Shown in pieces: positions 1,247-50,886 of a stretch of DNA of 57,660 nucleotides. Location: contig CANRPK010000006.1 of NCBI GenBank assembly GCA_947632455.1, positions 1 to 57,660 of the forward strand. Reading direction: 5' to 3'. Both the position numbers and the translations under genes were made by a program. Position 1 is the stretch's first letter; each line of letters begins with the position of its first letter. The stretch comes from an uncultured Bacilli bacterium (GTDB lineage Bacteria; Bacillota_I; Bacilli_A; RF39; UBA660). Below the pieces are notes generated by a model. That model ran no database searches. It worked only from the letters and a program-made list of their open reading frames with translations, and had not been told where the DNA came from.

Positions 1247-4054
<2,808 letters not shown>

Positions 4055-5062: not shown

Positions 5063-7173
5063 AAGAGAAAATATTAGACTTATTAAAGAATATCCATGAA
5101 GCTAAAACTTTAATTGAAATTAACGATCTGCTCCAACTAACAACTGTTAAAGAATTACAAGAACTAACTAAAAATCTTGAAGAATTAGTAAATGAATATC
5201 AAGTATTTAAAACTAAAAAAGATAAATATTTACTTTTAGCTAATTGTTCTAATTTAAAAATTGGTCCTATTGCTATTAATAAAAAAGGCTTTGGCTTTGT
5301 AATTTTAAATCAAGAAGATGATATTTATGTTGCCGAACAAGATTTAAACGGAGCCATCCATAATGATGTAGTTTTAGTTGAAGTTTTAACAAAAGGTTTA
5401 AAACCTGAAGGTCGAGTATTAAAAATCGTCAAAAGAAATCTCGAAAATATTGTCGGAGAGATTTATTTTCAAAATAATAAAGTCATGTTAAAACCTGATG
5501 ATGCTAAACTTCGCTTAACTATTTTTATAACTGATGAAACATCTAAAAATTGTGTTGAAGGTCATAAAGTTTTATGTAGTTTACGCAAAAAATTAAATAC
5601 TAATACTTATTTAGCTGATTGTCTTAAAATTCTTGGTCATAAAGATGACGCGGGAATTGATATTTTAAGTATCGCTTGTAAATATGGCATAGTAAATGAA
5701 TTTAGTCCTGAAGCTGTAAAAGAATTAGAAGAAATACCTAATACTGTAAGTGAAAAAGAATTAATAAATCGTCGTGATTTAACTAATGAAATGATTTTTA
5801 CTATTGATGGTGATGATACAAAAGATATTGATGATGCTATAAGCTTAACTTATAAAGATGGTATATATAATCTAGGTGTACATATTGCCGATGTTAGTCA
5901 TTATGTTAAAGATAATACTGCTTTAGGCGATGAAGCTTATAATCGTGGTACTTCTTCTTATTTAGCAGATACTGTAATTCCTATGTTACCTCATAAATTA
6001 TCCAATGGTATATGTTCTTTAAATGAGGGCACTATTCGTTTAGCAATGAGTTGTACAATGGATATTGATACTAACGGAAATGTTCTATCTTATGATATTT
6101 TCCCAAGCTATATAAAATCTCAAAAGAAAATGACTTATAATAAAGTTAATGCTATATTAGAACACAATCAAGTCCCTGAAGGCTATGAACCATTTAAGGA
6201 CACACTAATTAAAATGAATGAACTAGCCCATATATTACGTCATAAAAAAGTAAGTAAGGGTTATATTGAATTTGATATTGATGAAGCTAAAATAATTCAA
6301 GATGAAAATGGTAAAGCAATAGATATTAAAAAAAGAACTCGTGGAGAAGGCGAAAATCTTATTGAAGACTTTATGATTGCCGCGAATGAAACTGTTGCCA
6401 GTCATATATCTAATATGGAACTTCCATTTATTTATCGTGTCCATGCTTTACCAAACGCTGATAAAATTGAAGATTTCCTAAATTTAGTAAAAGCATTAGG
6501 CTATACAATTCATACCAATATTAATGAAATAACTCCTATATCTATGCAAAAAGTTTTAAATGAACTTAAAGATAAACCTGAGTATTTAATATTATCTACT
6601 CTATTATTAAGAAGTATGAAAAAAGCTGAATACTCTAAAACTAATATTGGTCACTTTGGATTAGCAAGTAAAAATTATACTCACTTCACTTCTCCAATTC
6701 GTCGTTTACCTGATTTAATTGTTCATCGTCTATTAAAAACATATTTAATTGATAAAGATTTCTCCATGTCCACGATTAATTATTTAGATAGCTACTTAGT
6801 TAATGCCGCGGAACATGCCAGTGAACGTGAAGTTGCCAGTATAAATGCTGAAAGAGATGTTACTGATATGAAAATGGCTGAATATATGGAAAGCCACATA
6901 GGTGAAGAATATGAAGGAATTATTTCTACTGTTACCAATTTTGGTTTCTTTGTTGAATTAGATAATTTAATTGAAGGCCTAGTTCATGTTAATACTATAA
7001 AAGGTGATTATTATAATTATGTTCCAGAACTTCTTTCACTTGTTGGTAAAAGTACTAAAAAAACTTATCGAGTTGGTGATAAAATTAAAGTCAAAGTCAT
7101 TAATGCTTCTAAAGAATCTGCTTTAATAGATTTTGAAATAGTCGAGGATAAATATGATCGAAATAAAAAATAA
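5059..7173 (+). CDS. rnr: Ribonuclease R
   Basis: TIDGDDTKDIDDA, HFTSPIRR, C-terminal S1 domain; adjacent to smpB. Confidence 0.95.
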   Translation: MKEKILDLLKNIHEAKTLIEINDLLQLTTVKELQELTKNLEELVNEYQVFKTKKDKYLLLANCSNLKIGPIAINKKGFGFVILNQEDDIYVAEQDLNGAIHNDVVLVEVLTKGLKPEGRVLKIVKRNLENIVGEIYFQNNKVMLKPDDAKLRLTIFITDETSKNCVEGHKVLCSLRKKLNTNTYLADCLKILGHKDDAGIDILSIACKYGIVNEFSPEAVKELEEIPNTVSEKELINRRDLTNEMIFTIDGDDTKDIDDAISLTYKDGIYNLGVHIADVSHYVKDNTALGDEAYNRGTSSYLADTVIPMLPHKLSNGICSLNEGTIRLAMSCTMDIDTNGNVLSYDIFPSYIKSQKKMTYNKVNAILEHNQVPEGYEPFKDTLIKMNELAHILRHKKVSKGYIEFDIDEAKIIQDENGKAIDIKKRTRGEGENLIEDFMIAANETVASHISNMELPFIYRVHALPNADKIEDFLNLVKALGYTIHTNINEITPISMQKVLNELKDKPEYLILSTLLLRSMKKAEYSKTNIGHFGLASKNYTHFTSPIRRLPDLIVHRLLKTYLIDKDFSMSTINYLDSYLVNAAEHASEREVASINAERDVTDMKMAEYMESHIGEEYEGIISTVTNFGFFVELDNLIEGLVHVNTIKGDYYNYVPELLSLVGKSTKKTYRVGDKIKVKVINASKESALIDFEIVEDKYDRNKK

Positions 7174-10410: not shown

Positions 10411-11922
10411 TTATATGCTTGTTTTTACTACAAATGGATTATCAGATTTACCAGTACCTCCACTAAATTCAATATCAGCTCTTAAATTAACTACTGGACG
10501 CACACCATGAGTGCCATACATGCCCGCACCGCGAAAGAAGTCATCACTACGCACAAGGAACACGTCAGCCCAACCATCGACATTATAGCGAGAGGGAGAC
10601 ATTGTCCAATAATATTGGTTAGTATATAGCCAGTAGTTAGTTCCTACTGTTCCTCCGAAAGCACCTGTCATTACTACCTCATCACTTGTGATTAAGCCTA
10701 CTGGATTTGTAAGTATTTCATTACCTCTACCTGAACCAGAAGTTGTGAATAAATCTCTTTTGAATGCCTTTGCATCTATTTTATCAAAAGAACTAAATCC
10801 ATCCACATCTGTTGGATCTTCTTCAGGCATTACTACTCCACACTTTAATGTTGGATATTGATTTGTTCTCCAAGCTCCGCCTTTGGCAATCAACCTTGAT
10901 GCTGGCGCATATCCACTTGCAGACTGTCCTGTACCATCGCCATTGTAATTATTCCAATTTCCTTTTACTACTACTCTATCATTACACCATCCTGTACTCC
11001 CACTTAAATATTTAGTATATTCTGACATTGCTCCTGTTTCAGTATACCATCCATGAACAGCTTTTGCTATATCACTAGGAGTAGAGTTGGAATGAGTTTC
11101 TTCATAACTTGGATTTGGTTTTTCATCTGTGTGGGCTGTTCCATAATAATATCCTACATAGGTATTATCACTATATGATGTAGGTTTATAAGCAGAAGTT
11201 AAAGCGTTAGTTTCAATTCCTTCAGTTATCTCGCAATTTGGTTCTGCACATTGGAATATTAACCTTAATGTTCCATCTCCATTTATTCTGATTATTCTCC
11301 ATGTATGATTTGCAAATGTTACCCAATTATTTACATCATTATTATTTCCTCTAAACACATAACTGGTTCCATAATTGTCTGGACTGGTATATAATTTTTC
11401 TTTTCCTTCAGGATTTTCTGTATTTTCATTATATGGACCTGTGATTGGATTTGGCATGGCATCTATTGTATATTTACTTCCTTTTGAAGTTTCCAATTTG
11501 CCTAACATTTCTTTTACTAAACTATCAAAATATATATAACACTTTGTTCCTTTTTCGGTTAAATTTAAAACATTTATAACATTATTTTTATATTCTATTT
11601 CTACTTCTTCTATTGGTTCACCATTTACTTCACAATAACTATCTTCACTTAGTTTATATCCTATTGTAGGTATCTTATTTATACTTACATATTCCTTTTC
11701 TTCTTTAGTACTATCGTCTTTTTCTTGATACATTGCTATTATATTTAAATCTGCCTTATTATAACTTATATTTCCACTTGCTAGTTCTATACTTTCTGTA
11801 TTTCGATATCTTGCTAAACTTGTTATATAGTTTATTACTATTACTAGTCCTATGGTTAGTAATATCCCTATTATTATTCCCTTTACTTTGGAGGTATTAT
11901 CCTCCAACTTTTCTAATTTCAT
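10411..11922 (-). CDS. Secreted hypervariable protein, paralog 1 (putative DGR target with CLec-like C-terminus)
   Basis: N-terminal TM then TSLARY; WRIIRINGDG; YWTMSP-[variable]-GVRPVVNL; three paralogs in the window. Confidence 0.75.
   Translation of the reverse strand: MKLEKLEDNTSKVKGIIIGILLTIGLVIVINYITSLARYRNTESIELASGNISYNKADLNIIAMYQEKDDSTKEEKEYVSINKIPTIGYKLSEDSYCEVNGEPIEEVEIEYKNNVINVLNLTEKGTKCYIYFDSLVKEMLGKLETSKGSKYTIDAMPNPITGPYNENTENPEGKEKLYTSPDNYGTSYVFRGNNNDVNNWVTFANHTWRIIRINGDGTLRLIFQCAEPNCEITEGIETNALTSAYKPTSYSDNTYVGYYYGTAHTDEKPNPSYEETHSNSTPSDIAKAVHGWYTETGAMSEYTKYLSGSTGWCNDRVVVKGNWNNYNGDGTGQSASGYAPASRLIAKGGAWRTNQYPTLKCGVVMPEEDPTDVDGFSSFDKIDAKAFKRDLFTTSGSGRGNEILTNPVGLITSDEVVMTGAFGGTVGTNYWLYTNQYYWTMSPSRYNVDGWADVFLVRSDDFFRGAGMYGTHGVRPVVNLRADIEFSGGTGKSDNPFVVKTSI
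10497..10597 (-). repeat. Variable region VR1
   Basis: GC-rich ~100-nt block; differs from sister copies mainly at codon positions 1-2. Confidence 0.75.
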
Positions 11923-12612: not shown

Positions 12613-14127
12613 TTATATATTTGTTTTTACTACAAATGGATTATTAGATTTACCAGTACCTCCACTAAATTCAATATCAGCATTTAGATTTATTACTGGA
12701 CGCACACCAGAAAGGCTATGCACACCAGCGGTGTGGATGTTACCAGCTGCAAGCACATCGAACACGGCTGCCCAACCTTCGGGATAATTGTGAACTGGAG
12801 ACATTGACCAATAATATTGGTTTGTGTATAACCAATAATTAGTAGAAGTTGTACCTCCAAAGCCTCCTGCCATCACTACTTCATCAACCATAATTAATCC
12901 TACTGGATTTGGAAGTACTCCGTTACCTCTATTTGAGCCGATAGTCGTAAATAAATCCCTTTTTAAAGCTACTGGATCTATTTCATTAAAACTACTAAAG
13001 CCTTCTTCTTCTGAAGGATTTGTTTCTGGCATTTCTACTCCACATTTTAAAGTTGAATATTGAGTTTTCCTCCAAGAATTCTTTGCAAATAACCTTGCTG
13101 ATGGGGCATATCCTGTTCCACTTTGTCCAGTTCCATCTCCGGTGTAATTATTCATAACGTTTTTAACTACGGTTCGATCATTACACCATCCTGTATTTCC
13201 ACTTAAATATTTAGTATAATTGGTCATTGCCCCTATTCCAGTATACCAACTATCAACAGCTTTGGCTATATCACTAGGAGTGGAATTTGAATGAGTTTCT
13301 TCATATGTTGGATCTTCTTCACCTTTATCTGCTTTGGATGTTCCATAATAATATCCTACATAGGTGTTATCATCATTTGGTACAGACTTATAAGCAATGC
13401 CATCTACAGCGTTTGTGGTTGTTCCTGTTGTTTCTGTACAATTTGGTGTTGCACATTGGAATATCATTCTTAATGTGCCATCTCCATTTATCCTGATTAT
13501 CCTCCATGTATGATTGGCAAATGTTACCCAATTATTTACATCATTATTATTTCCTCTAAATACATAACTTGTTCCATAATTATCTTCGGTTGTATATATC
13601 TTCTCTTTTCCTTCGGGATTTTCTGTACTCTCATCATATGGTCCTGAGAATGAGTTAGGCATAGCTGTTTTTTCATATGTACTTTGTTTTATTGTTTCTA
13701 ATTTTGCTAACATATCTTCGGCTTTATAATCTAAGTCAAAATATATATAACATTTCGTTCCTCTTTTTTTAATATTTCCTACATATATTGCTCCTTCTCT
13801 ATATTCAATTTGAGCATCTTCTACTTTTTGATTACTAACTTCACAATAACTTTTATTACTTAATGTATATTTTTCAGTTGGTACATCATCTATTTGTTTA
13901 TAGCCATTTGTGCTATAACTACTTTCTTGGTACATCGCTATTATATTTAAATCTGCTTTATTATAACTTATATTCCCACTTGCTAGTTCTATACTTTCTG
14001 TATTCCTATATTTTGCTAGGCTTGTTATGTAATTTATTACTATTACTAATATTATTGCTAATATAAATCCTACTACAAATATTGTTTTATTTCTTTTACT
14101 ATCTGTATCTAACCTTTCTATTTTCAT
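12613..14127 (-). CDS. Secreted hypervariable protein, paralog 2 (putative DGR target)
   Basis: Same architecture as paralog 1; YWSMSP-[variable]-GVRPVINL. Confidence 0.75.
   Translation of the reverse strand: MKIERLDTDSKRNKTIFVVGFILAIILVIVINYITSLAKYRNTESIELASGNISYNKADLNIIAMYQESSYSTNGYKQIDDVPTEKYTLSNKSYCEVSNQKVEDAQIEYREGAIYVGNIKKRGTKCYIYFDLDYKAEDMLAKLETIKQSTYEKTAMPNSFSGPYDESTENPEGKEKIYTTEDNYGTSYVFRGNNNDVNNWVTFANHTWRIIRINGDGTLRMIFQCATPNCTETTGTTTNAVDGIAYKSVPNDDNTYVGYYYGTSKADKGEEDPTYEETHSNSTPSDIAKAVDSWYTGIGAMTNYTKYLSGNTGWCNDRTVVKNVMNNYTGDGTGQSGTGYAPSARLFAKNSWRKTQYSTLKCGVEMPETNPSEEEGFSSFNEIDPVALKRDLFTTIGSNRGNGVLPNPVGLIMVDEVVMAGGFGGTTSTNYWLYTNQYYWSMSPVHNYPEGWAAVFDVLAAGNIHTAGVHSLSGVRPVINLNADIEFSGGTGKSNNPFVVKTNI
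12699..12799 (-). repeat. Variable region VR2
   Basis: Aligns with VR1/3/4; shares a 24-nt exact match with the orphan copy at 31709-31812. Confidence 0.7.
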
Positions 14128-24912: not shown

Positions 24913-25098
24913 TTACCAACTTGATTTCTTAACGCCTGGTATTTTACCTTCATTTGCAAGTTCTCTAAAGCAAATACGGCAAATTCCAAACTTACGCATT
25001 ACGCCATGAGGTCTACCGCATCTTTCACATCTAGTATAAGCACGAACTTGAAACTTAGGTGTTCTTTTATTTTTAATAATCATACTTTTCTTTGCCAT
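24913..25098 (-). CDS. rpsZ: 30S ribosomal protein S14 (zinc-binding type Z)
   Basis: RCERCGR...CRICFR. Confidence 0.96.
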
Positions 25099-31384: not shown

Positions 31385-31548
31385 TATTCATGTCCTCCTT
31401 TCGCCTATATCTAGTATAGACTTGCATCCGTCCGAATTAACCTGATAGTAGATTTGAATGAAACAACCAACCCTAGCGTATCAGCAACCTCGTACATCCA
31501 AGCCAGTCATACGCAATAAATTATATCAATATATTCTATGAACGTCAA
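31385..31548 (-). promoter_or_regulatory. S10 operon promoter and GC-richer 5' leader
   Basis: TTGACG(31548-31543)-17-TATAAT(31525-31520); ~130-nt leader richer in GC than typical intergenic DNA; AAGGAGG RBS. Confidence 0.65.
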
Positions 31549-31567
31549 GTAAAAATTAGCATTTAAA

Positions 31568-31619
31568 TAAAAAAAATGCTGTTATAATCGCAGGTTATCT
31601 AACCTACAATATCAGCATT
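31568..31619 (-). terminator. Rho-independent terminator closing the region downstream of paralog 3
   Basis: Minus strand AATGCTG..TTGTAGGTTA GA TAACCTGCGA..CAGCATT followed by a T-run. Confidence 0.7.
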
Positions 31620-31708
31620 AAATATTAAAGTCTAAAACTAAGGACTAATCTTAGAACCAATTCTAACTATATTTAGTCTTAACCAAATATTTGAGTAAAA
31701 AGGTTATT

Positions 31709-31812
31709 GACGCACACTAAGACCAGTGTTACCCACGTGCGCAGCGCCGAGGATGCCATCATTATACACATCGAACACGGCTGCCCAACCATCGACCCAA
31801 TAGTGAAGCGGA
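31709..31812 (-). repeat. Orphan non-coding VR-like copy
   Basis: 104 nt TCCG...GTGTGCGTC aligning with VR1-4 only across the VR; flanks non-homologous; in-frame stops on both sides. Confidence 0.8.
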
Positions 31813-31844
31813 TCAAAAATACGTGCCTAGATTAACCCTGAAAA

Positions 31845-32081
31845 ATGCTTCCTCACGTGATACAACCCACGTGAAGAAAATGCAAAGTCGACAACAAACG
31901 TTGCCGACTATACCTGTCTTCAAAATATTATCTTGCAAAAATACTTTTGCAAATTTGGATATAATTCTTATATATAACTTTGGTGAGGCAGGTCCAAAAT
32001 GAAGAGTCATTTTGAACCACCAACACTACACTCCTTGAAGTGTCACTTTATTCGTAGTCTCACCTTAATGCGACTACGAAT
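31845..32081 (-). ncRNA. Candidate structured RNA (cluster of about six hairpins)
   Basis: Inverted repeats at 31849-31878, 31886-31909, 31933-31952, 31991-32018, 32028-32043 and 32050-32081; imperfect positions are G.U pairs on the minus strand. Confidence 0.5.
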
Positions 32082-33604
32082 GGACTACTAGATTTACCAT
32101 TACCTCCTGAGAATGTTGTATCAGCCTTCAGATTAACTACTGGACGCACACCATAAGCGGCACCAACGCCCGCACCCCAGAAGCGGCCATCAGTACGCAC
32201 ATCGAACACGCTAGCCGTCTTAACATCGACATCATAGCTCCACGGAGACATTGTCCAATAGTATTGGTTAGTATATAGCCAGTAGTTAGTTCCTACTGTT
32301 CCTCCAAATCCTCCAGCCATAGCAACTTCATCACTTGTAATAAGCCCTACTGGATTTGTAAGTACTTCATTACCTCTGCCTGAGTTTTTTGTTGTGAATA
32401 AATCTCTTTTGAATGCCTTTGCATCTATTTCATCAAAACTAGTAAATCCTTCTTCTTCAGTTGGGTCTGTTTCGGGCATTACAACACCGCACTTTAATGT
32501 TGGATATTGTTTTTTTCTCCAAGCTCCGCCTTTGGCAATCAATCTTGATGCTGGTGCATATCCACTTGCACTTTGACCTGTACCATCGCCATTGTAATTA
32601 TTCCAATTTCCTTTTACTACTACTCGATCATTACACCATCCTGTACTTCCATCTAGATAATCAGTATAATTTGTCATTGCTCCTGTTCCGCTATACCAAT
32701 TATCAACAACCGTAGCTATATTACTAGCAGTAGCATTTGAGTGGACTTCATCATAAGGTGGAGTTGGTTTTTCATCCGAATGCGCTGTTCCATAATAATA
32801 TCCGACATAAGTGTTGTCATCATATGGAGCTGGCTTATAAGCAGTTCCACCTACAGCGTTTGTAGTTGCTCCTTCAGTAGTTGTACAATTTGTAGTTGCA
32901 CATTGGAATATCATTCTTAATGTTCCATCTCCATTTATTCTGATTATTCTCCATGTATGCCCAGCAAAATTGACCCAGTTATTTACATCTTCATTGTTAC
33001 CTCTAAAGACATAACTAACTCCATAATTATCTGGGCTGGTATATAATTTCTCTTTTTTTTCGGGATTTTCTACATCTGCATTATATTGTCCAGTTATTGG
33101 GCTTGGCATTTTATCTATGGTATAGTTACTTTTCTTCACAGCCTCAAGTTTAGCAAGCATATCCTTAGCTGGAGCAAATTCATCAAGATAAATATAGCAT
33201 TTTGTATTGCTCTTGTTAACACCACTAAATGTTAAACTAAAACCATTATAATCTACACTTACTGTATTATCGCTATCAGAACCATAAACTTTTTGCTGTC
33301 CAACCTCACAATATGATTGGCCATTAATTTTATAATTACCGATTGGTACATCTTCTCTACCATAATCTCCTGTAAGCGTTCCATATTCATCTACATGCTT
33401 AACATTAACAGCAAGTAAATTAAAATCAGCTAGTGAAAAATTTACAGTACCTGATGCTAACTCAATACTTTCTGTATTTCTATACTTAGCATAGGAAAAA
33501 CATAAAGTAAGAACACCAACTAGAACAACGGCAAACAAGGAAATACCTAGGCTTAAACGTTTCCAAAACCTTTTTTTCCCTGACGATAATGTTTCAAATT
33601 TCAT
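32060..33604 (-). CDS. Secreted hypervariable protein, paralog 3 (putative DGR target)
   Basis: TM then SYAKYRNTESIELASG; YWTMSP-[variable]-GVRPVVNL; divergent N-terminal domain. Confidence 0.75.
   Translation of the reverse strand: MKFETLSSGKKRFWKRLSLGISLFAVVLVGVLTLCFSYAKYRNTESIELASGTVNFSLADFNLLAVNVKHVDEYGTLTGDYGREDVPIGNYKINGQSYCEVGQQKVYGSDSDNTVSVDYNGFSLTFSGVNKSNTKCYIYLDEFAPAKDMLAKLEAVKKSNYTIDKMPSPITGQYNADVENPEKKEKLYTSPDNYGVSYVFRGNNEDVNNWVNFAGHTWRIIRINGDGTLRMIFQCATTNCTTTEGATTNAVGGTAYKPAPYDDNTYVGYYYGTAHSDEKPTPPYDEVHSNATASNIATVVDNWYSGTGAMTNYTDYLDGSTGWCNDRVVVKGNWNNYNGDGTGQSASGYAPASRLIAKGGAWRKKQYPTLKCGVVMPETDPTEEEGFTSFDEIDAKAFKRDLFTTKNSGRGNEVLTNPVGLITSDEVAMAGGFGGTVGTNYWLYTNQYYWTMSPWSYDVDVKTASVFDVRTDGRFWGAGVGAAYGVRPVVNLKADTTFSGGNGKSSSPFVVALR
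32143..32246 (-). repeat. Variable region VR3
   Basis: Aligns with the other VRs; one extra codon. Confidence 0.72.
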
Positions 33605-33776: not shown

Positions 33777-34220
33777 ATGAGGTTTAATCGAAACGACGAA
33801 AACTACGTTTACGGTTTTGTTGGAAAAAATATAAAAAAATACCGTAAAATGCAAGGTTTAACCCAGGATGAACTTGCGTCATTAGTAAATTATTCGCCTT
33901 CTTTTATAGCCAATATTGAGTCATCCACACACCAAACTTTTTCCTTAGGAGCCTTATGGCGCATTGCCACTGCCCTAGGTGTTAGCCTTCATGAAATATG
34001 TTATGATAACAACAAATTAGGAAGTGCAAATAATATGAATAGTGTCCTATATATCTGTGATAGTTGTTCCAATACTATCGATATGCCTATAGAAGTAGTC
34101 GATGTTTTCGAATTTATTTACGCAGTTGGTAAAAGTAAAGAACTATACCCAACATTTACTTGCCCCAAATGTGGTGGAAAACTTATTCCTAAAAAAAATG
34201 ATCCCCTCGACAAAATGTGA
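33777..34220 (+). CDS. XRE-HTH regulator with C-terminal zinc ribbon
   Basis: NIKKYRKMQGLTQDELA; CDSC...CPKC. Confidence 0.8.
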   Translation: MRFNRNDENYVYGFVGKNIKKYRKMQGLTQDELASLVNYSPSFIANIESSTHQTFSLGALWRIATALGVSLHEICYDNNKLGSANNMNSVLYICDSCSNTIDMPIEVVDVFEFIYAVGKSKELYPTFTCPKCGGKLIPKKNDPLDKM

Positions 34221-34265: not shown

Positions 34266-34649
34266 ATGAACGACATACAATTATATAATGAAATAGGAAA
34301 AAATATTAAAAAAGCTCGCCGAAGTCTCGGAATTACGCAAGAAAAATTAGCCGAAATAACTAATTATTCTTTATCTTTTATAGCCAATATTGAAAGTAAT
34401 ACTTACCAAACTTTTTCTGTAAGTGCCATAAATAATATTGCTAAAGCCCTAAATACTAGCATTACTAACTTATTACCAAAAAATCCCATCATAGATGAAC
34501 CTTTAGTAATTAAATGTTTAAAATGTAATTACAATATAACTTTACCAACTGAATTAGATAAATTACTTAATAATATTCAAGAAATGACCAATAAAAAAAT
34601 AAGACTTACATGTCCTATTTGTCATCAAAAAATAAATGTTGATATCTAA
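34266..34649 (+). CDS. XRE-HTH regulator with C-terminal zinc ribbon
   Basis: NIKKARRSLGITQEKLAE; CLKC...CPIC; paralog of the preceding gene. Confidence 0.8.
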   Translation: MNDIQLYNEIGKNIKKARRSLGITQEKLAEITNYSLSFIANIESNTYQTFSVSAINNIAKALNTSITNLLPKNPIIDEPLVIKCLKCNYNITLPTELDKLLNNIQEMTNKKIRLTCPICHQKINVDI

Positions 34650-49368: not shown

Positions 49369-50886
49369 ATGAAAATAGAAAGATTAGATACAGATAGTAA
49401 AAGAAATAAAACAATATTTGTAGTAGGATTTATATTAGCAATAATATTAGTAATAGTAATAAACTATATAACTAGTTTAGCAAGATATAGGAATACAGAG
49501 AGTATAGAACTGGCAAGTGGAAATATAAGTTATAATAAAGTAGATTTAAATATAATCGCAATGTATCAAGAAAGTAGTTATAGCACAAATGGTTATAAAC
49601 AAATAGATGATGTACCAACCGAAAAATATACATTGAGTAATAAAAGTTATTGTGAAGTAAATGGCGAACCCATAGAAGATGTAAATATAAATTATGAAGA
49701 AGGTTCATTAGGTGTAACAAATATCAAAAAAAGAGGAACAAAATGTTATATATATTTTGACTTAGATTATAAAGCAGATGATATGTTAGCAAAATTAGAA
49801 GCAATAAAACAAAGTGAATATACCATAGATGAAATGCCAAACCCAATTACTGGAATGTACAACGAACAAGAAGAAAACCCAGAAGGAAAAGAAAAATTAT
49901 ATATCAGTCCAGATAATTATGGAACCAGTTATGTGTTTAGAGGCAACAATGATGATGTAAATAACTGGATAACATTTGCCAATCATACATGGAGAATAAT
50001 CAGAATAAATGGCGATGGCACATTAAGATTAATATTTCAATGTGATAAACCAAATTGTGAAATAACAGAAGGGGCAGAAACTAATGCTTTAACTTCTACA
50101 TATAAATCAGAACCATATGACGATAATACCTATGTCGGCTACTATTATGGAACAGCCAAAGCAGATAAAGGAGATACTGGAGATCCAACATATAGCGAAG
50201 CACATTCCAACTCTACACCTAGTAATGTAGCAAAAGCTGTCGATGGCTGGTATACTGGAACAGGAGCCATGACAAATTATACAAACTATCTAGATGGAAG
50301 TACAGGATGGTGTAATGATAGAGTAGTAGTTACTAAAGTCTGGAATGGATATGAAAGCGATGGTACAGGACAGTCTGCAAGTGGATATGCCTCAGCTTCA
50401 AGGTTGATTGCCAAAGGTGGAGTTTATAGAACAAAACAATATCCAACATTAAAATGTGGGGTTGTAATGCCTGAAGAAGATCCAACAGATGTAGAAGGAT
50501 TTAGCAATTTTGATGAAATAGATACTAATGCTTTAAAAAGAGATTTATTTACTACCAAAAACTCAGGTAGAGGTAACGAAATACTTACAAATCCAGTAGG
50601 TTTAATTACTAGTGATGAAGTCGCTATGGCTGGAGGCTTTGCAGGAACAGCAGGAACTAGCTATTGGTTATATACTAACCAATATTATTGGACAATGTCT
50701 CCGTATCACTATTATCTCGATGGTTGGTCAAGCGTGTTCGATGTGTATGGTGATGGCGGCCTCTGGGGTGCGCGCGTGTATTACCCTCTTGGTGTGCGTC
50801 CAGTAGTTAATCTGAAGGCTGATATTGAATTTACAAGTGGAACAGGAGCATCTTCTAATCCATTCGTAGTAAAAACAAACATATAA
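49369..50886 (+). CDS. Secreted hypervariable protein, paralog 4 (putative DGR target)
   Basis: N-terminus nearly identical to paralog 2; YWTMSP-[variable]-GVRPVVNL. Confidence 0.75.
   Translation: MKIERLDTDSKRNKTIFVVGFILAIILVIVINYITSLARYRNTESIELASGNISYNKVDLNIIAMYQESSYSTNGYKQIDDVPTEKYTLSNKSYCEVNGEPIEDVNINYEEGSLGVTNIKKRGTKCYIYFDLDYKADDMLAKLEAIKQSEYTIDEMPNPITGMYNEQEENPEGKEKLYISPDNYGTSYVFRGNNDDVNNWITFANHTWRIIRINGDGTLRLIFQCDKPNCEITEGAETNALTSTYKSEPYDDNTYVGYYYGTAKADKGDTGDPTYSEAHSNSTPSNVAKAVDGWYTGTGAMTNYTNYLDGSTGWCNDRVVVTKVWNGYESDGTGQSASGYASASRLIAKGGVYRTKQYPTLKCGVVMPEEDPTDVEGFSNFDEIDTNALKRDLFTTKNSGRGNEILTNPVGLITSDEVAMAGGFAGTAGTSYWLYTNQYYWTMSPYHYYLDGWSSVFDVYGDGGLWGARVYYPLGVRPVVNLKADIEFTSGTGASSNPFVVKTNI
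50700..50800 (+). repeat. Variable region VR4
   Basis: 101 nt, ~54% GC by manual count; aligns with the other VRs. Confidence 0.75.

Follow-up and report, generated by a model that had tools for sequence, protein, structure and literature searches.

The 104-nt non-coding segment that lies upstream of rpsJ in an uncultured Bacilli bacterium of the gut is very probably the template part of a DGR template-RNA gene. The segment occupies positions 31709-31812, on the minus strand, of the window, that is, the whole 57,660-nt stretch (contig C6) that was analyzed. This copy is one of a family of template units in the same genome, and the evidence favors, with moderate confidence, reading it as a retired template cassette of a multi-template DGR, overwritten by mutagenized cDNA or by gene conversion.

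These positions are the exact location of a 104-nt sequence quoted in an earlier note on this DNA, where it was described as a non-coding, adenine-poor copy of the variable region (VR) of the neighboring genes, bounded exactly at the VR edges. The description was borne out. The best BLAST match of the segment lies at 50700-50800 (76.9% over 104 nt, 21 mismatches, one gap, E 2e-17), in agreement with the approximately 21 mismatches counted in the note against its fourth VR, at 50698, and shorter matches lie at 12794-12754, 10581-10525, and 32210-32162. A five-copy nhmmer profile finds the segment at E 3.9e-24, and at the level of sequence chance is ruled out as the source of its likeness to VRs. 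In a MAFFT alignment that includes the gene flanks, homology between the segment and the gene VRs is confined to the stretch from TCCG to GTGTGCGTC. The sequences on either side of the segment do not align to the flanks of the paralog genes; they are conserved and belong to a unit that is repeated in the genome. As also claimed, a TAG stands six codons before the CCG and a CAA-TAA follows the CGT in that frame. The segment itself is open in the VR frame, with 16% A (measured over 100 nt, alignment columns 49-157) and only two AAY triplets. A mini-ORF was considered here and rejected, as there are stops on both sides, the upstream frame is not conserved and no start codon is seen. The patches that the note had found in common with three different VRs are all visible in the MAFFT alignment, namely 24 nt with the VR at 12801, GTCGATGGTTGGGC with that at 10599, and GTGTTCGATGTGTAT with that at 50698. 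The best local match to the 50698 VR contains 14 mismatches in 79 columns, only four of them at adenines of the segment, so that mismatches to the VRs are not concentrated at its own adenines; none of the four VRs in the window appears to have been written from it.

The genome of the window (G000) is a MAG of 1.54 Mb with 126 contigs and 30% GC. Genome-wide, 52 VR-like segments were detected by nhmmer (E<=0.01), of which 26 are in paralog genes, 25 in orphan units, and one is truncated; the segment is therefore a “fifth copy,” as the note had it, within the window but not in the genome. In the 26 gene copies, the VR runs on as a ...RPV(I/V)NL coding sequence, and in the 25 non-coding copies the VR-like part runs on as AATATCC or ATAACC. 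The genome-wide count of orphan copies proposed in the note thus yields 25 units besides the gene copies. These are units of ~300 bp that occur singly or as tandem arrays, the largest with 12 members (Table 1). Since the C20 and C35 arrays run to contig ends, the genome probably has more units than were counted. On C20, the neighboring units at 24937 and 25241 have the same sequence. Each unit is built from a TGnTATAAT promoter (in most units), GGTTAATCT, a leader of ~15 nt, the TR-like segment, 70 nt of conserved tail, and two hairpins, the first small and the second long with a T-run; the two strands of the stop duplex (see below) are ~200 nt apart. The window copy has the leader, the tail, and the terminator in common with the other units. 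A motif at the TR/spacer junction has 24 matches in this genome and is found in 38 of the 44 genomes of the genus, with 1–24 matches each and the highest number in G000; the reversed control gave no match. Because the arrays sit at contig ends of a MAG in 126 contigs, an A-rich master TR may be located there and be unassembled, and some units may be chimeric assemblies. At C37:103-176, with the complete C37 unit following 1.9 kb downstream, there is also a truncated unit in which the leader and the first ~74 nt of the TR-like segment are followed by unrelated sequence.

Table 1. Features of the template unit in the window, of its surroundings, and of the other units in the genome (positions without a contig name are those of the window).
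Feature	Position	Strand	Remarks
P1 5′ strand (GGTTAATCT)	31829..31837	-	Pairs with 31643-31651; upstream strand, equivalent of the “cPRT stop” duplex
P1 3′ strand (AGATTAGTC)	31643..31651	-	Alignment and MFE fold
TR-like segment	31709..31812	-	BLAST, MAFFT, nhmmer
P2 5′ strand (TAACC)	31702..31706	-	Directly after the TR end; template side, candidate template:primer duplex
P2 3′ strand (GGTTC)	31654..31658	-	Primer side of the candidate duplex
P3 hairpin, ATATTTGGT-TAAG-ACTAAATAT	31669..31690	-	9-bp stem and tetraloop; candidate Avd-binding stem-loop
Unit terminator, long hairpin with T-run	31569..31619	-	Position and shape conserved in all units
Two intrinsic-terminator-like hairpins	31848..31909	-	Directly upstream of the unit; 2 sites against 0.4 expected
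Conserved non-coding element	31910..32042	-	Between target gene and unit; cross-species comparison
Target paralog, 514 aa	32060..33604	-	Immediately upstream of the unit; VR 32142-32248
Target paralog, 505 aa	49369..50886	+	VR 50698-50801
Target paralog, 504 aa	12613..14127	-	VR 12698-12801
Target paralog, 503 aa	10411..11922	-	VR 10496-10599
Tandem array, 12 units	C20:22587-26118		Contig end
Tandem array, 6 units	C35:230-1685		Contig start
Tandem array, 3 units	C9:30437-31252		
Single units	C10, C37, C38		One each, plus the window copy on C6

Covariation argues that the units act as RNA. Three helices were tested in an alignment of 34 units from ten genomes (23 from G000 and 11 from nine sister species): P1, in which the leader GGTTAATCT pairs with AGATTAAYC; P2, in which TATCCT after the TR pairs with AGGATA; and P3, a 9-bp stem with a tetraloop. 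Pairing is found in 96.4% of 812 cells, compared with 32-44% when the partners are slid, and 8 of the 24 pairs change on both sides, a figure reached by none of 500 shuffles. P1 is 99.0% paired in the alignment, with two of its nine pairs changing on both sides, and four of nine do so in P3. P2 occurs as TAACC/GGTTA in the window copy and the C10 unit and as TATCC/GGATA elsewhere, again a change on both sides; the tail of the window copy is also most like that of the C10 unit. The MFE fold of the window copy contains P1, P3, most of P2, and the terminator hairpin. According to the portion of Handa et al. (bioRxiv 10.1101/2023.10.23.563531) drawn on here, DGR RNAs harbor three elements: a template:primer duplex, in which the priming A is the last base of the primer strand; a stem-loop immediately after the TR that usually has 9 bp and a tetraloop; and a duplex formed by sequences on the two sides of the TR. 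Counterparts of all three, i.e., priming duplex, stem-loop, and stop duplex, are present in the units, as judged from covariation and from the fold computed for the window copy. This accounts for the exact boundaries of the copy at the VR edges, with its 3′ edge adjoining the priming duplex and its 5′ edge falling immediately within the stop duplex.

An intact RT is encoded on C29, a low-GC contig (ORF at 5201-6322, 374 aa, PF00078 at 75 bits), with IGNMSSQ at residue 231 and YMDD at residue 263. DGR-type RTs are characterized by [I/L]GxxxSQ in motif 4 and by YxDD, and we take the two C29 motifs to be of this type; NCBIfam is without a DGR-RT model, and the best matches of the C29 RT there are generic. 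A 119-aa ORF overlaps the start of the RT gene, and its sole match is NF033474 DivGenRetAVD (E 8.6e-9, profile positions 3-98 of 104) at 35.7 bits, below the curated cut-off of 80. Two paralog genes adjoin the pair. Within the genus, the RT has a match at E<=1e-20 in 33 of the 40 other genomes searched and is full-length without stops in ~24 of them; it is broken in a few genomes, for example G048, G009, and G012, and G013 is without an orthologue (best match 39% identity). The canonical layout, a single TR beside avd and RT, is not what is found here. The units are on C6, C9, C10, C20, C35, C37, and C38, and on C29 nhmmer gave no VR-like or TR-like match except for a gene flank at 3055-3097. 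RTs on C64, C36, C42, and C90 were rejected as partners, as these contigs have 42-53% GC against 30% for the genome and give group-II-like or foreign matches. On C90 (3308 bp, 53% GC), a 451-aa RT is preceded by an ORF ending in ...GYSYGVAPAFRV, and this contig may carry another DGR, of foreign origin, that belongs to a contaminating organism.

The targets are about 26 paralog genes for proteins of ~505 aa with the VR at the C-terminal end. The products are membrane-anchored surface proteins, DUF6273-like on weak evidence. At the default threshold, Pfam gave no match for the four paralogs in the window; DUF6273 scores were 19.3 bits for the paralog at 49369..50886 and 15.2 bits, against a cut-off of 23.5. 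An Atlas score of 0.97 links the paralog at 49369..50886 to DUF6273 clusters, in which 19 of 30 matches fall. A PDB sequence search gave no match, and an AlphaFold2 model of the C-terminal domain from an 18-paralog alignment was unusable (pLDDT 42.8). Divergent from the paralog next to the window unit are two HTH (XRE-type) genes on the plus strand, at 33777-34220 and 34266-34649.

The comparison of the locus upstream of rpsJ in related genomes, which the note had proposed, separates the window copy from its counterparts. The same order is kept in other species, with the target gene followed by a conserved non-coding element of ~190 nt, one or more units, and the rpsJ leader. At this locus, G006, G023, G002, and G046 harbor promoter-bearing, AAC-rich units, whose TRs have 29-35% A and 10–15 AAY triplets where measured, against the adenine-poor copy of the window. 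In G002, the neighboring VR differs from the TR of the first unit by 16 substitutions, 13 at adenines of the template and none at adenines of the VR; the genus therefore runs an ordinary, adenine-specific DGR. The mechanism without adenine restriction that had been suggested for the window copy is thus not needed, given this signature and an RT with IGNMSSQ and YMDD. Between G006 and G023 only three TR positions differ, so the template is stable there.

The ~190-nt element is more conserved across species than the neighboring coding sequence (also in L007, L008, L024-L029, and L046). In the window, it contains a 29-mer that is exact in six species records, a promoter-like stretch, and a palindrome, TTGCAAAAG..TTTTTGCAA (TTGCAAA..TTTGCAA). 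It further contains a hairpin, a terminator-like hairpin, and, in relatives, a promoter-like TTGGAC..TGTATAAT. The element could be a regulated leader for template expression. Rfam detected no family at E<=1 in 31400-32100 except for a spurious lncRNA match. The G013 locus (L029; the same sequence in L014:695-855) has a hairpin instead of a promoter before the first unit, whose TR is 5′-truncated and degenerate, in the genome without an RT orthologue.

The whole template set of G000 is eroded at adenines. Its own units have 14–27% A. Columns that are A in the sister TRs are hypervariable among the 23 G000 units in 24 of 27 cases, compared with 13 of 54 non-A columns (Mann-Whitney p 4e-11), and A columns in the unit flanks are not variable. 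Over 253 unit pairs, the TR has a mean identity of 68%, compared with 86% for the flanks; A accounts for 20% of TR composition but is involved in 61% of the TR mismatches between units, and mismatches in the flanks are as composition predicts. The window segment can be composed as a mosaic of C20_25548 (5′) and C37_2008 (3′) with 14 mismatches, 10 of them at donor adenines, and against the C37 unit alone 15 of 23 mismatches are at donor adenines. In canonical TR/VR pairs, more than 90% of the mismatches are at adenines of the template. The signal between units and genes in G000 is weaker: 31–39% of mismatches are at unit adenines (composition 19–21%), with the best pair being the C34 gene and unit C20_24060, in which eight of nine are. 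The four VRs of the window are mosaics of two to three unit segments, with 19 of 47 mismatches at donor adenines. There is also a case that points elsewhere: the 50698 VR shares 51 columns with unit C20_25850 with one mismatch and all seven adenines unchanged, a pattern that fits plain gene conversion better. Ordinary gene conversion, templates missing at contig ends, and the assembly of a mixed population into a consensus are all possible contributors to the weak signal in this genome.

Besides its lack of adenines, the window copy carries several lesions. The stretch that reads GGTGTATAATATAATT in the nearest relative, G046, reads AGCATTTTTCA in the window copy, with the -10 box lost, and a promoter scan found no promoter-like site for this unit. 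The second of the two terminator-like hairpins upstream is located directly before the stretch that corresponds in position to the TGTATAAT promoter of this relative and is not promoter-like in the window. At the TR/spacer junction, one C of the usual GTGCGTCC is missing. The candidate priming A at the 3′ end of the primer strand, kept in 33 of the 34 aligned units (pair 160-218, UA), is C in this copy.

Strain variation was assessed on assembled Logan contigs, i.e., at consensus level, and runs from at least three studies yielded contigs with the locus; of 11 runs considered, none is on record as RNA. One X1 contig shows no difference from the window and may not be an independent sample. The X3 contig differs over 31450-32099 by 16 changes in 650 nt, at least nine of which are in the 104-nt TR-like part (binomial p 2.7e-4), so that at contig level the copy does not have the invariance of a template. 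Ten strain differences were mapped by hand, four of them at non-A columns in the 5′ part. Contigs X5 and X6 are broken inside the segment, and these breaks may simply reflect the repeat. An exact-pattern scan of metagenome contigs with a G000-specific 27-mer and the conserved 29-mer returned no stretches. Because the segment looks like an adenine-mutagenized mosaic of sibling units and differs much more between strains than its flanks do, the window copy behaves as a non-coding target, or sink, either of retrohoming by this system or of gene conversion from the sibling units. Probably, it has been retired as a template and is being overwritten. For the overwriting, cDNA from sibling units is an even-odds explanation, and recombination is a possible but rather doubtful one.

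The following scheme would account for these observations. At least 25 units would serve the one putative Avd-RT pair of C29 and about 26 paralog genes. Each unit would be transcribed from its own TGnTATAAT promoter, Avd-RT would prime on the duplex just 3′ of the TR, copy the TR with errors opposite adenines, and stop at the leader duplex. The cDNA would then replace the whole VR or its 3′ part, which would give rise to the mosaics seen. The window copy, having lost the -10 box, one junction base, and the A at the primer end, would no longer be a source, and its TR-like part would still be replaced. A tentative extension is that templates are unprotected from their own enzyme, the cassettes being substrates as well as the source of mutagenic retrohoming. 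In that case, the set of templates would evolve through the adenine mutagenesis that also acts on the targets, and the system would be a two-tier diversity generator, in which a choice among about 25 evolving scaffolds is combined with point mutagenesis, and the rpsJ-proximal copy would be a cassette without template function that still has target function.

Several other readings were weighed. Units might be silent donors of DNA for segmental conversion of the RecA type, as in pilS/pilE and vls, without involvement of the RT. The two- to three-segment mosaics of the VRs and the 51-column stretch with its seven unmutated adenines would suit this reading, as would the open VR frame that each of the 25 unit TRs keeps throughout its homologous part. 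However, a DNA donor needs no promoter, terminator, or covarying RNA helices, and yet these are kept: what the genome contains is not promoter-less DNA without an RNA function, for most units have TGnTATAAT, a terminator, and covarying helices, and it is the window copy alone that is without the promoter. Furthermore, the putative Avd-RT pair is conserved and intact across the genus, the adenine signature in G002 is clean, and variation among units tracks the template-adenine columns, which recombination alone does not predict. The silent donor cassette, one of the options of the earlier note, is thus retained as a minority reading and is quite unlikely. An unlikely reading, too, is that the window copy is a template still at work, an adenine-poor but active TR. 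Read-through from the upstream element would supply its transcript, and ordinary exchange between units would account for the differences between strains. P1, P3, and most of P2 do form in it, the terminator is intact, the element offers a promoter-like stretch and the palindrome, and the first unit of G013 is likewise fronted by a hairpin. Against this, any upstream promoter is separated from the window unit by two terminator-like hairpins, the nearly universal primer-end A and one junction base are gone, and no VR of the window looks written from the copy; the other hairpin-fronted case, that of G013, is without an orthologous RT and has a degenerate TR.

That the segment might be the decayed 3′ end of a fifth full-length paralog, or an assembly artifact, was named in the note as what would overturn its reading, and this is hardly credible. 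The copy does follow a same-strand paralog directly, and the MAG is fragmented. However, homology beyond the VR is to template units and not to genes, contigs from the different studies contain the locus, and it is syntenic in other species, so that both alternatives are refuted, unless all assemblies share one error. Two of the options in the note agree with the data, a template that was itself mutagenized and a diversified non-coding target. Both are supported by the template-RNA architecture, by the AAC-rich templates at the sister loci, and by a TR-like part that is adenine-poor and variable among strains, and they are probably one and the same thing.

In the textbook view of DGRs, one invariant template serves one or a few targets and is shielded from rewriting. 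Here, a 1.5-Mb genome devotes dozens of loci to alternative, predicted separately transcribed templates that bear the signature of adenine mutagenesis. If the templates are really rewritten, the rule that distinguishes donor from recipient (IMH vs. IMH*) would be leaky or absent in this template family, the reachable sequence space would be far larger than adenine positions alone allow, and search tools designed around one A-rich TR next to an RT would overlook or misinterpret systems of this kind. Being compact and self-contained, the unit would also be a natural design for multiplexed DGR engineering.

Silent-cassette systems (Neisseria pilS, Borrelia vls, Mycoplasma MgPa repeats) hold unexpressed partial copies that give rise to mosaic variable regions. 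They have no promoters, RNA structure, or RT, whereas the units described here are RNA genes of an RT system. Parallels are also found among DGRs, as far as the portions of the following reports drawn on here go. As in the BPP-1 DGR RNA, with its layout of avd 3′ end, TR, and spacer (10.1101/2023.10.23.563531), RNA on both sides encloses the template, with a short duplex 3′ of the template ending in A, a 9-bp tetraloop stem, and an upstream/downstream duplex; a candidate Avd and an RT with DGR motifs are present, and differences within the genus fall at adenines. Unlike in BPP-1, the unit is an RNA gene in its own right, complete with promoter and terminator and not linked to avd-RT, and the genome has at least 25 copies of it. 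The templates are not alike and have been depleted of adenines, and the window copy has neither the promoter nor the conserved A. More than one template per element is known from a survey in which 55 of 271 multi-VR DGRs had more than one TR, with examples of two and six TRs (Yan et al., 2019, PMC6642488); that portion of the survey makes no mention of unit arrays, templates remote from the RT, or mutagenized templates. In the literature searched, no published arrays of complete template units or mutagenized templates were found, and survey supplements might list such cases. DUF6273 (C-type-lectin-like) domains are DGR targets in the tentaclins of phages (PMC10743442); among domain families, DUF6273 also comes nearest by score to the C-terminal domain of the paralogs, which has the VR at its end, but the paralogs are cellular, membrane-anchored, and about 26 in number, with a Pfam score below cut-off. 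The DGR of Trichodesmium erythraeum, with a stand-alone template-repeat sRNA of ~265 nt and at least 12 target genes (PMC6596454), likewise employs an independent small template RNA for many dispersed targets in trans; unlike that system with its one template, dozens of alternative templates in arrays are found here.
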